Part shown: positions 32,638 through 40,915 of the stretch, piece after piece
How positions within the stretch are numbered: the first letter of the stretch is position 1
How the letters are laid out: every line of letters starts with the position of its first letter
Assembly: GCA_027319565.1 (NCBI GenBank)
Contig: DAHVNA010000004.1
Coordinates: 25,522 to 89,521 of the forward strand
DNA: 64,000 nucleotides
Reading direction: 5' to 3'
Origin: Elusimicrobiota bacterium
GTDB taxonomy: Bacteria > Elusimicrobiota > Elusimicrobia > UBA1565 > UBA9628
Made by a program: the position numbers and the translations under genes
Notes under the pieces: model-generated
Seen by the model: the letters and a program-made list of their open reading frames with translations, nothing else
Told to the model about the DNA's origin: nothing
Databases searched by the model: none

Positions 32638-33282
32638 TTATTGTCCATCAACATCCCGCCCATGCCATAGAAGATAGATCGCGGGATAGACGAGGAGTTC
32701 CAGGATAAATGAGGTGAAAAGACCGCCGACCATGGGGGCGGCGATTCGCTTCATGACGTCTGCGCCCGTTCCGGTCGACCACATGGCCGGAAGAAGTCCC
32801 AGAAACGCGCAAGCGACCGTCATCATTTTTGGGCGCAGACGCTTGGCCGCGCCGTCATGAATCGCTTCTTTAAGATCGGCTTGCGTGTTAAGACGTCCGG
32901 CGGCGGCGCGCGCTTGTTTTTCGAGATTGAGATAGAGAAGCATGAAAATGCCCGTTTCGGCGTCAAGCCCTAAAAGAGCGATAAACCCTACCCAGACCGC
33001 GACGGAGAGATGATATCCCAAGAGCCACAACAGCCAAATCGCTCCGACTGCCGAGAACGGCACCGCGACTAAGACGATTCCCGCTTCAATCCAGGAGCCT
33101 GTGTTAAAGTAGAGAAGCAATACGATCAGCAAAAGAGCGAGCGGGCCGATGATGAGGAGCCTTTTCTCGGCTTTTTTCATCTGTTTATACTGTCCGCTCA
33201 ATTCATAACGATAGCCCGAAGGAAAAGTGACCGATTTCGCAATGGCCGCCTTGGCCTTTTGGACGTAACCCCCGATATCGGA
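32638..33282 (-). pseudogene. 645-bp near-identical duplicate of the cusA 3' portion (matches 34269-34910), lacking the 5' part
   Basis: Colinear with the full cusA, mostly synonymous differences; homology ends exactly at the 27-bp repeat. Confidence 0.92.
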
Positions 33283-34083: not shown

Positions 34084-34216
34084 CATCACTCCGGCAATCC
34101 CTAAGCCGGAGTCCAGACTCTCAGAAAGCCTACCACTGGCCGCTCCCCAACAGACTTTGGAAGCGGCATTTCCTCGGCTTATGCCTCGGTCAGATTCCGG
34201 CGTTCGCCGGAATGAC
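34084..34216. repeat. Paired REP-like palindromes (actccggc..gccggagt and attccggc-gttc-gccggaatgac) enclosing a ~55-bp hairpin repeat
   Basis: Palindromes at ~34088-34112 and 34194-34213; inner 34137-34194 resembles 37491-37545. Confidence 0.7.
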
Positions 34217-34268: not shown

Positions 34269-37200
34269 CTAATTCCCAATATCCCGCCCATGCCACAAAA
34301 GATAAATCGCGGGATAGACGAGAAGCTCCAAGATAAATGAGGTGAAAAGTCCGCCGACCATGGGGGCGGCGATTCTTTTCATGACGTCTGCGCCCGTTCC
34401 GGTCGACCACATGGCCGGAAGAAGTCCCAGAAACGCGCAAGCGACCGTCATCATTTTTGGGCGCAGACGCTTGGCCGCGCCGTCATGGATCGCTTCTTTA
34501 AGGTCGGCTTGTGTGTTAAGACGCCCAGCGGCGGCGCGCGCTTTTTTTGCGAGATTGAGATAGAGAAGCATGAAGATGCCGGTTTCGGCATCAAGTCCTA
34601 AAAGAGCGATAAATCCCACCCAAACCGCGACGGAGAGGTGATATCCCAAAATCCACAACAGCCAAATCGCGCCGACGGCCGAGAACGGCACCGCGACTAA
34701 GACGATTCCGGCTTCAATCCAGGAGCCGGTGTTAAAATAAAGAAGCAATACGATCAGAAAAAGAGCGAGCGGGCCGACGACGAGAAGTCTTTTCTCGGCT
34801 TTTTTCATCTGTTTATACTGTCCGCTAAATTCATAACGATAGCCCGAAGGAAAAGTGACCGATTTCGCAATGGCCGCCTTGGCCTTTTGGACGTAACCCC
34901 CGATATCGGAAGTTTTTAAGTCCACATAGACATATCCTGAGAGTTCGCCGTTTTCATCTCGAATCATGTCAGGTCCCTGGCGTATGCGAATTTCAGCGAT
35001 CTCGGCCAATGGAATCTGCTCGTCTTTGGAAACGGGGACCAAAACTTCTCCGATTTTTCTCAAACTGTCTTTAAAGTCCGGGGCATAGCGCACGTTCACC
35101 GGAAAACGATCGCGGCCTTCGATGGTCTTCGTCACGCGCTCGCCTCCTAAGGCGGCGGCGATCATCGAATTTGCGTCATCAACTGAAAGCCCGTATCTCG
35201 CCAAAGCCCGGCGCTTTAAAATGATGTCGGTGTAATAGCCCTGGGCGGTCCTTTCCGCCACGGCGCGCCTAGTTCCAGGCACGGAATTAAGAGCTCCTTC
35301 GATTTCAGCTCCGAGTTTTTGAATCACGGATAAATTCGGGCCGAAAATTTTAATTCCAACGGGCGTTCGCATTCCGGTTGAGAGCATATCGATGCGATTT
35401 TGTATGGGCTGGGTCCAGATATTGGGATAGCCCGGGATCTTAAGCTTCTGATTCATTTGAGAGATCAGCTGCCTCTGACTCAAATGGCATTTCCAGAGTC
35501 CGCCGAGACAAGGCGTTGTCGGCCAAAATTTTCGGGGTTTTAAAACGACGGTCGTTTCCATCATGGACAAGGGTGCGGGATCGGTCGCGGTTTCGGCGCG
35601 GCCAGCCTTGCCGTAAACGGTTTTAACTTCAGGGAAAGATTTGAGGATTTCGTCTTGAATTTGAAGGACCCTCCGGGCTTCCGTTATCGAGACTCCGGGA
35701 AGAGTGGTCGGCATGTAAAGGATGGTTCCCTCGTTGAGCGGAGGCATAAACTCAGATCCCAAGCGCCATAAAAGAGGCAGAGTCAAAAGGAAAAGCGCGG
35801 CGGCCGAGAAAATCGTTCGGCGCGGATTTTCCAAGACCCAGTTGACCACCGGCGAATAAATTTTAAAAAGCCGGCGGCTGATGGGGTGTTTCTCTTCCGG
35901 ATAATAGCGTCCGACTAAAATGGCGTCGGCGGCGCGGTTAAGCCAATGCGGCTTAATATTAAATGAGTCCATTCGCGCAAAAAACATTCGGACTGCGGGG
36001 TCTAGGGTCACGGCTAAGACCGCGGCAAGCGTCATCGCGAAAGTTTTTGAATAGGCGAGAGGCTTAAATAACCGGCCTTCTTGCCCGGTAAGAGCGAAAA
36101 TCGGAAGAAATGCGGCTGCGATAACGAGAAGCGAGAAAAAAACCGAAGGGCCGACTTCCATTAAAGCTTTGAGGCGCACCTCATGAAAATCTCCCTTGCG
36201 TCCCTCTTCTTGCCACTCCTCAAGACGCTTGTAGGCATTTTCGACCTCGACAATCGCGCCGTCAACGAGAATTCCAATTGAGATCGCGATGCCGGAAAGA
36301 GACATGATGTTGGTGGTCAGGCCCAAAGCCGCCATCGGGATAAAAGCCAAAAAAACGGAAACCGGAATTGTCAGAATCGGAACCATGGCCGACGGCGGGT
36401 GCCATAAAAAAAGAAGGATCACGAGACTGACGATGAGCATTTCTTCAAAGAGCGTTTCTTTGAGCGTTCCGACGGCTCGTTTGATAAGACCCGATCGGTC
36501 ATAGACCGGGATGATGCGAACTCCGGGCGGCAAAGAGGGAGAAATCTCTTTTATTTTTTCTTTGACGCGGTTGATCACATTGAGCGCATTTTCTCCGCTG
36601 CGAATGATGACGATTCCGCTGACGGCGTCGCCAAGGCCGTTGAATTCCCCGACGCCTCGCCTTCGAGCGGGTCCCAGGCTGACTGTGGCGATATCTTGAA
36701 CCAAAACAGGCGTTCCCGTTTCAGGGTCTCGTCCGACAGAAGTTTGCTCGATGTCTTTGATTCCTTTGAGATAACCGCGCCCTAAAATCATGAATTCTCT
36801 TCCCGAAAACTCGATCGTGCCGCCGCCCGCTTCGCTGTTGGATTCTGAAACGGCTTTGAGAACCTTGGTCAGCGAAATGTGATAGCTCCAGAGAGCGCTG
36901 GGATTTATTTTGACCTGATACTCTTTTTCATATCCGCCGATGGACGCCACTTCAGAGACGCCAGGAACGGCTTGAAGCTGATAGCGAATGTGCCAGTCTT
37001 GAAGGGCGCGGAGTTGAGATAAATCCAGCGCTTTTGAATCATCCACCAGCACGTACTGATAGACCCAACCAAGACTGGTCGCGTCCGGTCCCATTGCGGT
37101 TTTCACTCCTTTGGGAAGCTCCGGAATGATTTTGGATAGGTACTCTAAAACGCGCGAACGCGCCCAATAGAGGTCGGTTCCGTCCTCAAAAATTACGTAA

Positions 37201-37475
37201 ACTAAAGACACCCCGAATTCATTGATCGCGCGAATCGCCTTAACTTTAGGCGCGCCCAAAAGAGCCGAGACGATCGGATAAGTCACCTGGTCTTCCAATA
37301 CTTCGGGCGATTGATCCCAGTTTGAGGAGACGATTACCTGAGTGTCCGATAAATCCGGTATCGCGTCGAGCGGCATTCTTTTGACCGTGTAAAAGGCGTA
37401 GGCCAAGGCCACGAGAGTCAAAAGAATAACGAGAAATTTATTGCGCGCCGAAAACGAAATGATTTTAGAGATCAT
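34269..37475 (-). CDS. cusA: CusA/CzcA-family heavy-metal RND permease (Cu/Ag type)
   Basis: DAIPDLSDTQVIV, GPDATSLGWVYQY, GRLFKPLA, EFMPPLNEG, TDPAPLSMMET, RLRPKMMT. Confidence 0.97.
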   Translation of the reverse strand: MISKIISFSARNKFLVILLTLVALAYAFYTVKRMPLDAIPDLSDTQVIVSSNWDQSPEVLEDQVTYPIVSALLGAPKVKAIRAINEFGVSLVYVIFEDGTDLYWARSRVLEYLSKIIPELPKGVKTAMGPDATSLGWVYQYVLVDDSKALDLSQLRALQDWHIRYQLQAVPGVSEVASIGGYEKEYQVKINPSALWSYHISLTKVLKAVSESNSEAGGGTIEFSGREFMILGRGYLKGIKDIEQTSVGRDPETGTPVLVQDIATVSLGPARRRGVGEFNGLGDAVSGIVIIRSGENALNVINRVKEKIKEISPSLPPGVRIIPVYDRSGLIKRAVGTLKETLFEEMLIVSLVILLFLWHPPSAMVPILTIPVSVFLAFIPMAALGLTTNIMSLSGIAISIGILVDGAIVEVENAYKRLEEWQEEGRKGDFHEVRLKALMEVGPSVFFSLLVIAAAFLPIFALTGQEGRLFKPLAYSKTFAMTLAAVLAVTLDPAVRMFFARMDSFNIKPHWLNRAADAILVGRYYPEEKHPISRRLFKIYSPVVNWVLENPRRTIFSAAALFLLTLPLLWRLGSEFMPPLNEGTILYMPTTLPGVSITEARRVLQIQDEILKSFPEVKTVYGKAGRAETATDPAPLSMMETTVVLKPRKFWPTTPCLGGLWKCHLSQRQLISQMNQKLKIPGYPNIWTQPIQNRIDMLSTGMRTPVGIKIFGPNLSVIQKLGAEIEGALNSVPGTRRAVAERTAQGYYTDIILKRRALARYGLSVDDANSMIAAALGGERVTKTIEGRDRFPVNVRYAPDFKDSLRKIGEVLVPVSKDEQIPLAEIAEIRIRQGPDMIRDENGELSGYVYVDLKTSDIGGYVQKAKAAIAKSVTFPSGYRYEFSGQYKQMKKAEKRLLVVGPLALFLIVLLLYFNTGSWIEAGIVLVAVPFSAVGAIWLLWILGYHLSVAVWVGFIALLGLDAETGIFMLLYLNLAKKARAAAGRLNTQADLKEAIHDGAAKRLRPKMMTVACAFLGLLPAMWSTGTGADVMKRIAAPMVGGLFTSFILELLVYPAIYLLWHGRDIGN

Positions 37476-37490
37476 AGTTTGATTCCTCTG

Positions 37491-37545
37491 TGGCCGCTCT
37501 CCAACAGACTTGGAAGCGGCACTTCCTCGCCCATGCTCGGTCGGA
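37491..37545. repeat. ~55-bp hairpin repeat; second copy at 34137-34194, so the two copies flank cusA in direct orientation
   Basis: tggccgctctccaacagacttggaagcggcacttcctcg versus tggccgctccccaacagactttggaagcggcatttcctcg. Confidence 0.85.
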
Positions 37546-37573
37546 ACATTCTTGCGGCTTTTGCCGTATCAAA
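37543..37573 (+). promoter_or_regulatory. Putative ECF-sigma promoter for the tRNA-like gene
   Basis: GGAAC (37543-37547) - 17 nt - CGTATCAAA (37565). Confidence 0.4.
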
Positions 37574-37580
37574 GGTGTAG

Positions 37581-37654
37581 GCCTCGCTAGCTCAACTGGA
37601 TAGAGCGCACCGCTGACTACGGGGGAGATTCGGGTTCGAATCCCGAGCGGGGCA
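37581..37654 (+). tRNA. Atypical tRNA-like gene, anticodon GAC (Val) by geometry, Arg-like D loop; A28.G42 mismatch, U37, no encoded CCA
   Basis: Acceptor GCCTCGC/GCGGGGC, D arm GCTC-AACTGGATA-GAGC, anticodon arm CACCG-CTGACTA-CGGGG, T arm TCGGG-TTCGAAT-CCCGA; U8, A14, G18G19 and A15:U48 intact. Confidence 0.75.
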
Positions 37655-37715
37655 TATGCCGGTTTCCGGCGGATAGCGACTTTCCCTCCAAAGTCAGCGG
37701 TCGTTGTCCATCCCC

Positions 37716-37745
37716 TTGACAAACATGCATAAGAGGGCTTACAAT
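37716..37745 (+). promoter_or_regulatory. Sigma70-type promoter for the small RNA
   Basis: TTGACA (37716-37721) - 18 nt - TACAAT (37740-37745). Confidence 0.75.
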
Positions 37746-37751
37746 AAAGCG

Positions 37752-37828
37752 TAGGCGGTGTGCTCCGAGTTAGCGGAGTCTTCCCCGTAGTCAAAGCGGC
37801 GTCCACAAAGGCGCCGCTTTCTTTTTTT
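37752..37828 (+). ncRNA. Putative ~77-nt small RNA antisense to the tRNA-like RNA
   Basis: Bounded by its own promoter and terminator; three segments complementary to 37584-37593, 37603-37613 and 37614-37628. Confidence 0.7.
37793..37828 (+). terminator. Intrinsic terminator
   Basis: aaagcggcgtc-cacaaa-ggcgccgcttt followed by cttttttt. Confidence 0.85.
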
Positions 37829-37850
37829 CCAGGGGTGCGGTTGATTTTTA

Positions 37851-38978
37851 TCACATCTTCATCCCGGGCATGGAGCCCATTGAATCCGAGGGAGCGGCGT
37901 TTTTGGAGTCTTTGCCCGGTTGAGCGAATGATTGGATCGCGGATTGAAATTGAGATTCCGCGTCGATTAAAAAATTAGCCGAAGTCGTTACCGTTTCTCC
38001 GGGACTTAAACCCGATAAAATTTCGTAATAGCCCCCGGCTTTTGTTCCTAACTGGATTGATCTCGGATCAAGAGTCCCGTCTTCCCTAGCCACAAAAACG
38101 TATTGTTTCTCCCCGGTGTTTAAAACCGCGCCTTCCGGCACGCTCAAATGCTCTCCCAGCGGAGATTGAATTGTGACATCCACATAGGTTCCGGGTTTGA
38201 GCAGTCCCAAGGCATCATCCAGCCGGGCTCTGACGCGCGCGGTTCGAGTGGTGGGGTTGATCACTGGATCTATTGAAAGGACATTTGTCGTCCAGACTTT
38301 TCCCGGGAGAGTTTGGGATTTAATCTTCACGGGAATTCCCGGATGAATGAATTGCAGGTCATATTCATAAACATCCGCATAGACCCATACCGCCTGTCCG
38401 CGTTTTCCCACTAAAAGCCCTTGAGCGAGACTCGGATTCTTGACCCAGGCGGAAACCTGAGCGGGAGACAAACCTAAGAGTTTGAGTTTGAAGGCCGATG
38501 CTTTTTCCATGGAGCGCGCCCAATTCGCTTCGGAATTTTGAGAGCTTTTTTTGACTGAGTTCAAGGCTTCAAGGGCTTGGCGGTATTCTTCGATTGCCTC
38601 ATAGAGTTGCGGGTCATAAGCGATGCGGCCGGGAGCGCGGATATTTTTTGTGAGCGCCCGCATTTCGGACTTTCCATAGGTGACGCCGATTAATTGCCGC
38701 CTTTGAGAGGAGATTAAGATGGGGGCTCTCTCGGGCACATTGCTGTTGCCTTTTTTCATTTTCTCCATCGGTCGTAAATTCATGCCGCAGATGGGGCACT
38801 GGCCCGGATGATTTCGAATAATCTGATGGTGCATCGGGCATTGGTAGAGAGTTTTTGGGGCGGCCTTTTTTGAAGAGGCGGCAATCTCAATTGAAGCGTT
38901 GCGGCTTTTGAAGTAAATGCCGGCGATAACGGCGAGGAAAAGAGATATCGCGAAAAAGAATAATTTTTTTTGTTTCAT
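37851..38978 (-). CDS. cusB: CusB-like RND periplasmic adaptor with heavy-metal-binding domain
   Basis: YQCPMH...PGQCPICGM, IDPVINPTTRTARVR, ANFLIDAES, Met-rich tail. Confidence 0.93.
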   Translation of the reverse strand: MKQKKLFFFAISLFLAVIAGIYFKSRNASIEIAASSKKAAPKTLYQCPMHHQIIRNHPGQCPICGMNLRPMEKMKKGNSNVPERAPILISSQRRQLIGVTYGKSEMRALTKNIRAPGRIAYDPQLYEAIEEYRQALEALNSVKKSSQNSEANWARSMEKASAFKLKLLGLSPAQVSAWVKNPSLAQGLLVGKRGQAVWVYADVYEYDLQFIHPGIPVKIKSQTLPGKVWTTNVLSIDPVINPTTRTARVRARLDDALGLLKPGTYVDVTIQSPLGEHLSVPEGAVLNTGEKQYVFVAREDGTLDPRSIQLGTKAGGYYEILSGLSPGETVTTSANFLIDAESQFQSAIQSFAQPGKDSKNAAPSDSMGSMPGMKM

Positions 38979-40692: not shown

Positions 40693-40798
40693 CTCCTCAT
40701 CCGGCCTACGCTTCGCTTTGGCCTCCCTCGGAGCCTGCTGCATCCGCAAACCAAATCGTTGGTTTGTGTCTGTCAGCTTCGAATCTTTCCTATAAAAA

Positions 40799-40885
40799 CG
40801 GAGAGGGTGGGATTCGAACCCACGAGGGGCGTGAACCCCTACCGGTTTTCAAGACCGGCGCCTTAAACCGCTCGGCCACCTCTCC
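40799..40885 (-). tRNA. tRNA-Ser(TGA)
   Basis: GGAGAGGTGGCCGAGCGGTTTAAGGCG CCGGT-CTTGAAA-ACCGG, long variable arm, GTGGG-TTCGAAT-CCCAC, G73; CCA not encoded. Confidence 0.97.
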
Positions 40886-40915
40886 AAATTCAATTAATTA
40901 TTATAGCAGGCTTGG

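Follow-up and report, generated by a model that had tools for sequence, protein, structure and literature searches.

A tRNA gene with a complementary small RNA

Why does the gap between a cusB-like and a cusA-like gene carry a complete tRNA gene and, behind it, a separate unit for a small RNA (sRNA) complementary to that tRNA? The question is raised by a 64,000-nucleotide (nt) stretch of DNA from an Elusimicrobiota bacterium (assembly GCA_027319565.1, contig DAHVNA010000004.1, positions 25,522 to 89,521), here called the window. Both host genes are on the - strand, and the two RNA genes form a cassette of about 290 nt on the + strand of the gap. We interpreted it, with moderate confidence, as a mobile or exchangeable, stress-inducible, RNA-only toxin-antitoxin (TA) cassette, in which the toxin would be a miscoding tRNA and the antitoxin its antisense RNA. 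The parts, the co-variation of the two RNAs and the hybrid identities of the tRNAs were observed; we infer transcription, charging, toxicity and trigger.

A preliminary description had read a full cloverleaf at this place, and ARAGORN and Rfam agreed (Table 1). The tRNA scored 48.8 bits (gathering score 29), matched RF00005 in full (1-71) and formed a canonical 7/5 cloverleaf. The promoter and the intrinsic terminator described for the sRNA were both located. In the Rfam search nothing came near a gathering score for the sRNA, and the tRNA was the sole element of the locus that reached one.

The complementarity had been described as three blocks in permuted order, with four departures from perfect pairing (three C>U, one A>G) that all gave G.U wobbles. 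The coordinates were reproduced: sRNA positions 37755-37765 pair with tRNA nt 23-33, 37767-37776 with nt 4-13, and 37779-37793 with nt 34-48. There were zero mismatches, exactly four G.U pairs were recovered, and the anticodon block lengthened to 18 pairs. The inner hairpin of the sRNA (37762-37779) was present in the predicted fold. No terminator was found in the interval between tRNA and sRNA, so the primary tRNA transcript may include the antisense in cis.

Homologous cassettes

BLAST of the gap detected a second full cassette, 72% identical, on contig C43 of the same genome; the changes in its anticodon arm were mirrored in its sRNA. Further cassettes were found in related genomes. The ordinary tRNA-Arg(UCG) of the relatives had nearly the same body and no partner.

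Several searches extended the collection. A pattern scan of a genome collection returned 74 loci, only 21 of them with an ARAGORN tRNA (the pattern was too loose), and the cassettes that it contributed came from records with the titles Elusimicrobia, Actinomycetota and Nitrospirales. A metagenome scan returned 25 loci. In 21 of them a tRNA bearing A20 received a non-Arg call, and 17 of these 21 had 13 or more Watson-Crick pairs in a helix spanning the anticodon; the pattern fixed positions 35-38, and conservation there is therefore by construction. Some of these cassettes had the sRNA upstream on the other strand.

A pattern applied to the phylum returned mainly ordinary tRNA-Arg, which was used as the control set. 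Helices that span the anticodon with 11 or more Watson-Crick pairs were looked for within 450 nt. They were found for 26 of 31 A20 tRNAs with an NAC or NGC anticodon and no A37, against 1 of 76 ordinary A20 tRNA-Arg and 0 of 6 A20 tRNAs with an NAC anticodon and A37.

An unbiased search used only the promoter motif and the 5' end of the tRNA, and was blind to anticodon and partner. Among 101 genomes of the order, 17 yielded matches, 33 in all, and the reversed control yielded none. Of the 32 examined, 29 had 10 or more pairs in a helix joining the anticodon arm to downstream DNA; the three misses were an internally deleted cassette, a broken tRNA and a bulged 8-pair match. The 32 were pooled with 20 units picked for showing a partner. 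Of these units, 3 were removed as broken or shared, 6 because no promoter was detected and 2 as redundant, which left the 41 cassettes used for statistics.

Some single loci deserve mention. The Nitrospirales-titled genome held a second cassette (L291), with an AAC anticodon and a matching antisense; among relatives of that genome the strict pattern matched 1 of 151. The AAC anticodon is rare in bacteria. At L104, grouped with L149, L153 and L169, two odd tRNAs shared a single sRNA on the opposite strand, which bore two anti-anticodon segments; the L104 record is titled Bifidobacterium breve yet nearly identical to three metagenome contigs, and the label is therefore doubtful. L131 and L144 were A20 tRNAs with CAC and AAC anticodons, A37 and similar surroundings, for which a partner was not found. 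L155 was an odd A20 tRNA (UGC or GCU reading) with no antisense partner found within 450 nt.

Co-variation and specificity of the pairing

The 11 cassettes of the window's type gave 319 paired cells; the register of each block was the best-scoring one, a choice biased towards pairing. Of the cells, 227 held the commonest pair, 49 had both sides changed, 29 had a single side changed, and 14 were broken. The changes on both sides fell at 17 of the 29 paired positions. These counts were made by script. Compensatory change between the two RNAs, which the preliminary description had proposed to look for in homologues, was thus present.

Over the 41 cassettes, the internal non-canonical positions comprised 15 G.U, 1 A.C and 5 others. 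This excess of G.U over A.C fixed the strand. The Watson-Crick run through the anticodon had a median of 12 for cognate and 4 for non-cognate pairs, with a mean of 6.6 for non-cognate pairs sharing the same anticodon. By this measure the cognate partner was strictly best in 28 of 41. A promoter-like site with at least 8 of 12 consensus matches preceded the partner in 43 of 49 cassettes, the site being chosen partly by the downstream pairing. Co-variation and cognate specificity, both obtained in silico, point to the specific pairing that an antitoxin would make with its toxin RNA.

The RNA-only pair of tRNA and antisense was thus borne out by its homologues. The count of two parts was too low: the promoter of the tRNA, its cis-acting trailer, a bridging frame on the other strand and a sister class of tRNAs had gone unnoticed at first.

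Promoter and trailer of the tRNA

The tRNA was preceded by GGAAC and CGTA boxes, which we take to be the consensus of extracytoplasmic function (ECF) sigma factors, and the motif with the 17-nt spacer presumably serves as the tRNA promoter. In the genome itself the two boxes occurred 15 times at spacer 17 and 6-8 times at spacers 15, 16, 18 and 19, a modest excess. A copy with a 16-nt spacer ended 27 nt before an ECF sigma gene (L262) that had an anti-sigma-like neighbour. Cassettes outside Elusimicrobia showed a sigma-70-like promoter in place of the ECF-like motif.

The genes behind GGAAC-17-CGTA included, as judged by reading their translations, two integrase-like genes and one DNA-methylase-like gene. 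On contigs C31 and C46 the motif stood directly before two integrase-like open reading frames (ORFs) and a RhuM-like ORF, labelled in the same way. This hinted that the same sigma factor may drive mobile genes.

Downstream of the tRNA, the 3' trailer formed a hairpin whose positions 37692-37701 pair with 37609-37618 in the tRNA, 10 of 10 by Watson-Crick pairs. In computed folds the precursor reached -56.8 kcal/mol as a rod and -50.0 kcal/mol with the cloverleaf enforced, and 4 of 1000 shuffles did as well. Where the spacer measured 40 nt or more, 20 of 24 cassettes had a trailer complement of at least 6 pairs; under a stricter rule 13 of 40 cassettes had one. The complement co-varied with the anticodon and was absent from cassettes with a short spacer. 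By these folds, the trailer can convert the precursor into a rod.

Identity of the cassette tRNAs

The body of the window tRNA resembled tRNA-Arg, with A20, and carried the Val anticodon GAC, U37 and A73; CCA was not encoded. The acceptor stem contained C3-G70 and U4.G69. According to the available text of PMC9976931, A20 is, along with C35 and base 36, the main bacterial Arg determinant, valine identity resides in A35, C36 and A73, and valylation suffers when acceptor pair 3 or 4 is G.U. The host genome also carried an ordinary tRNA-Val(GAC), on another contig, and five tRNA-Arg genes. The window tRNA is therefore supernumerary. Its U37 and U4.G69 departed from the purine 37 and regular acceptor stem of a housekeeping tRNA-Val(GAC), and it was not conserved in relatives, being missing from the same cusB-cusA junction in all five congeners. 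GUC and GUU together made up 45 per 1000 codons in long ORFs.

With C35 absent, insertion of Arg at Val codons is a plausible result for the window tRNA and the likeliest single one, the chances for and against being about equal. A shifted anticodon register, in which the loop moves by one and exposes C35-U36, folded better in L161, L163 and L165, was ambiguous in L160 and was not favoured in the window. That ArgRS reads C36-U37 in such a register is speculation.

The cassette tRNAs bore the anticodons GAC, AAC, CAC, GGC, GCU, GUC, CUC, GAU and CCA, and the partner sRNA followed the anticodon. Two chassis were distinguished. Class I (21 of 41, including that of the window) all had G1 and A20, with anticodons GAC, AAC, CAC, GGC and GCU. 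In class II (20 of 41) none had A20 or G1; position 1 was U in 17 and C in 3, and the anticodons were GUC, CUC and CCA. The GAU anticodon was also met on a U1-A72 body. None of the 14 GAC tRNAs had A37 (U in 11, G in 2, C in 1), and all 4 GCU tRNAs had it. C33 was present in 12 of 41.

The combination of A20 with GCU amounts, by the published identity rules, to full Arg identity reading Ser codons, and for these members we strongly predict Arg at Ser codons. For class II, bacterial GatCAB reads U1-A72 and a short D loop, and a tRNA-Asn bearing the Asp anticodon was amidated efficiently (PMC1635274, as far as its available text goes). GatB was over cut-off in 5 of 5 host genomes; AsnRS and GlnRS were over cut-off in 0 of 5. 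With a U1-A72 body, and with GatB in hosts lacking AsnRS and GlnRS calls, the GUC and CUC members should therefore miscode Asp and Glu codons. Here too the prediction is strong: Asn would be inserted at Asp codons and Gln at Glu codons, through a non-discriminating synthetase and GatCAB.

A decoy or spare tRNA, uncharged or correctly charged, might instead titrate a synthetase, stall ribosomes, trigger Rel or replace a host tRNA cut by an anticodon nuclease, with the sRNA holding it silent until it is required. The window-type tRNAs lack C35, A37 is absent from all 14 GAC tRNAs, the GAU and CCA types have no clear route to mischarging, and the discriminator base varies, all of which suit such a role; some allo-tRNAs are toxic without use in translation (PMC5389517, available text). 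The complete wrong-amino-acid identity sets of the GCU/A20 and GUC/U1-A72 types do not, and two masking layers, trailer and sRNA, would be needless for a harmless spare. AlaRS and SerRS ignore the anticodon, which rules out the GGC and GCU types as anticodon decoys for these two synthetases. We consider a decoy or spare unlikely.

Gain, loss and neighbourhood

In five congeners the cusB-cusA junction was either empty (15 nt) or held a terminator stump, an anti-CUC sRNA without tRNA, a CUC cassette or a GUC cassette. A hydrolase-permease junction was occupied in 5 of 25 loci, by CUC, GGC or GAU cassettes. Some cassettes stood in tandem. Five cassette tRNAs (L225, L242, L244, L247 and L250) carried a tandem-palindrome insertion within the T loop or adjoining it, which probably inactivates them, and one cassette tRNA was internally deleted. 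Loss or disruption of the tRNA with the sRNA kept fits a toxin and its antitoxin. Genes for ParE, HicB and HigB lay beside cassettes in L218, L237 and L225. No Cas family was found among the 86 and 74 flanking ORFs scanned, nor was a synthetase family among the flanking ORFs scanned. At L240 a copy of a class III aminotransferase gene stood on either side of the cassette.

These patterns bear on a second alternative, in which a stress sigma factor raises sub-lethal errors at chosen codons for the benefit of the host and the sRNA sets the threshold. An ECF-like promoter shared with host genes and the avoidance of harm to host operons would agree with it. So would C33 (12 of 41) and a pyrimidine or G at 37, if they attenuate as the non-U33 bases of mistranslating tRNAs may; in the known ones base 33 is G or A, and decoding seems to be limited by G33 (PMC11415595, available text). 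On the other hand, the patchiness, the anticodon swaps at one site and the frequent loss of the tRNA with retention of the sRNA suit a selfish module better. Regulated mistranslation for host benefit therefore appeared quite improbable.

A stop-free frame on the opposite strand

The - strand carried a stop-free frame across the whole cassette. In the window it began on the cusB stop codon (GTGA overlap) and finished 8 nt inside the cusA start. Such a frame was present in 31 of 40 cassettes, where shuffles gave an expectation of 9.4. Frames on the RNA strand were open in 10 of 40 (6.8 expected), no more than chance, and ordinary tRNA-Arg loci gave 9 of 71. Downstream of the tRNA, in 32 cassettes, 14 stop triplets fell in the open frame of the tRNA and 131 in the other two.

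The open frame began exactly on the stop of the upstream gene in 11 of 31. An ORF lay downstream of 25 open frames: 10 of these ran into it in frame and 11 finished within 20 nt of a start; the host genes in these counts were long ORFs, confirmed by Pfam only in part. The avoidance of stops was observed directly, and it presumably provides a translational bridge that keeps the host operon coupled.

The 129-amino-acid ORF of the window was ruled out as a conserved protein, having no Pfam or NCBIfam match. Between cassettes the frame shifted relative to the sRNA and terminator, and the products differed outside the tRNA-derived part. There is thus no conserved protein. The excess of open frames and their start on an upstream stop might still be read as a functional gene on that strand, with the RNAs regulating this ORF or, as antisense to cus mRNA, the host operon. 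The shifting frame, the differing products and the lack of a family match make this very improbable; it also leaves the co-variation of tRNA and sRNA unexplained, and the frame is open in few cassettes outside Elusimicrobia.

Several broken copies and the weak energy test at the single locus would suit neutral debris of a tRNA pseudogene and scrambled inverted duplications, a reading hardly credible beside the co-variation, the G.U bias, the conserved promoters and terminators and the recurrence in distant phyla, by which comparative data largely refuted it.

The locus in the window

A REP-like (repetitive extragenic palindromic) repeat of 55 nt lay at the cusA side of the cassette. A second copy in the window, at 34137-34191, was just beyond cusA, so that the two copies flanked this gene. 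The repeat was plentiful in the genus and was absent from homologous cassettes as a part. Shortly past the full cusA, a 187-amino-acid ORF (32638-33201, - strand) resembled an RND permease, the match being confined to the permease's C-terminal part. The window also contained a tRNA-Ser(UGA) at 40798-40886 (- strand), and another tRNA-Ser(UGA) was on contig C101 of the same genome.

Table 1. Features of the cusB-cusA gap and its flanks (positions in the window)
Feature	Position	Strand	Remarks
Hybrid-identity tRNA, putative toxin	37581..37654	+	ARAGORN and Rfam; anticodon GAC
ECF-sigma-like promoter of the tRNA	37543..37568	+	GGAAC 37543-37547, 17 nt, CGTA 37565-37568
3' trailer hairpin	37671..37709	+	Loop 37681-37699 complementary to own anticodon arm
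Sigma-70 promoter TTGACA-18-TACAAT	37716..37745	+	11/12 consensus match
Antisense small RNA, putative antitoxin	37752..37828	+	5' end inferred from -10 box
Intrinsic terminator of the sRNA, 11 pairs and U run	37793..37828	+	11-pair stem at 37793-37820
129-codon stop-free frame	37465..37854	-	Spans whole cassette, cusB to cusA
cusB-like adaptor gene, upstream host gene	37851..38978	-	
cusA/czcA-like RND gene, downstream host gene	34269..37475	-	TIGR00914 over cut-off
REP-like palindromic repeat, 55 nt	37491..37545		Abuts -35 box; 12 genome copies

Proposed mechanism

In the proposed TA cassette, an ECF-type stress promoter would make the tRNA precursor. The trailer, according to the computed folding, would close on the anticodon arm and could keep the precursor inert until 3' trimming, like fbi in hok mRNA. 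The mature tRNA, with the identity of one amino acid and the anticodon of another, would miscode. A constitutive sRNA from the sigma-70 promoter would pair with the anticodon arm and the D or acceptor strands and neutralize it. When stress raised the tRNA, or when transcription stopped and the sRNA decayed, global mistranslation and growth arrest would follow. On the opposite strand, the stop-free frame may allow ribosomes to pass through the cassette and so keep the host operon coupled. Missense allo-tRNAs kill Escherichia coli (PMC5389517, available text).

A wider reading is that these are modular, reprogrammable RNA cassettes, selfish or defensive, that attack the genetic code. Anticodon and antidote would be swapped together on an Arg or a GatCAB chassis, a stress sigma factor would be the trigger, and the stop-free opposite strand would suit life inside host operons. 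This may as readily prove wrong as right.

Several results weigh against the TA proposal. The window tRNA is without C35, a major Arg determinant, and keeps the main Val determinants A35, C36 and A73, and therefore may be valylated or uncharged. Members that combine a U1-A72 body with the anticodon GAU or CCA do not suit the GatCAB route, and three GUC or CUC tRNAs have C1-G72, a pair outside the tests in the available text of PMC1635274. In the comparison with shuffled controls that the preliminary description had suggested, the window duplex was better than most, but 15 of 1000 shuffles were as good, only modestly beyond chance. When RNAduplex was used to rank the 46 tRNA calls of the genome against the window sRNA, its own tRNA came 4th. 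With pairing in the window alone modest by energy, it is the homologues that carry the argument against chance. Among these, arm-level energy put the cognate first in just 22 of 41, RNAduplex energies discriminating poorly, and the homologues are related, hence not independent events, so that p-values overstate the case.

For the odd A20 tRNAs L089, L150 and L159 (UGC or GCU readings), no partner was found within 450 nt. BLAST against plasmids and phages gave generic tRNA matches only. In viral contigs a loose pattern returned 18 ordinary phage tRNAs, a second 1 non-tRNA, and the strict class patterns 0. Three RNA runs yielded no coverage, an outcome uninformative about expression. Most of the Pfam-named neighbours (86 ORFs) were metabolic or housekeeping genes, not defence islands, and inspection by eye of the cassette junctions detected no target-site duplication and no mobility gene or enzyme.

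Relation to known systems and significance

In TA systems of type VIII the two components are non-coding RNAs. The same is predicted here from sequence, with no conserved protein, and the cassette would count as type VIII should its tRNA prove toxic. It resembles SdsR/RyeA (PMC8610362, available text) in its RNA partners and in the antisense pairing through which its putative antitoxin would act. The RNAs of SdsR/RyeA, however, lie on opposite strands of one locus, whereas the cassette has tandem genes on the same strand and no Rfam match or sequence relation to them. Its putative antitoxin is a separate gene with partial, permuted complementarity, unlike a cis-overlapping transcript. CreTA (PMC12737573, available text) likewise has RNA partners, and CreT poisons translation through a tRNA. 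It belongs to a CRISPR-Cas locus, with an antitoxin like a CRISPR RNA and a toxin that has a strong ribosome-binding site and rare codons; the cassette has cus neighbours and no Cas family turned up in the flanking ORFs scanned, and its toxin would be the tRNA itself.

The type I system hok/Sok (PMC9841398, available text) would, under the proposal, have in common with the cassette an inert precursor closed by a 3' fold-back, activation by 3' trimming and a small antisense RNA. Its toxin is a small protein, whereas in the cassette the target is a tRNA, the trailer is optional, the promoter is of a stress type and the sites are chromosomal operon junctions.

The allo-tRNAs (PMC5389517) and tRNA-ProX (PMC11415595), as far as the available texts go, resemble the cassette tRNAs in their hybrid identity, in rare anticodons with A34, in loops without U33, in protein TA neighbours and, under the proposal, in being toxic when expressed. 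The 8/4 or 9/3 acceptor/T-stem of allo-tRNAs is absent from the cassette tRNA, a 7/5 cloverleaf. tRNA-ProX has tRNA-Pro identity and an adjacent ProRSx, in contrast to the Arg-like or Asn/Gln-like (GatCAB) bodies of the cassettes, for which no synthetase turned up in the flanking ORFs scanned. Neither paper uses the word "antisense" in its main text. A tRNA with its own dedicated antisense RNA was not found in a literature search that covered titles and abstract openings, supplements, where lists of rare tRNAs might include such genes, lying outside its scope.

How encoded mistranslation is regulated is largely unknown according to a 2024 review (PMC11415595, available text). If the proposal is true, the cassettes would give encoded mistranslation a natural role and an off-switch. 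A tRNA toxin would join the RNA-only TA class, and GatCAB would be turned against the code. Standard tools label the cassette tRNAs as ordinary tRNA-Val, -Asp, -Glu or -Ser, and tRNA inventories are therefore distorted. Once recognized, the cassette genes would be easy to mine.
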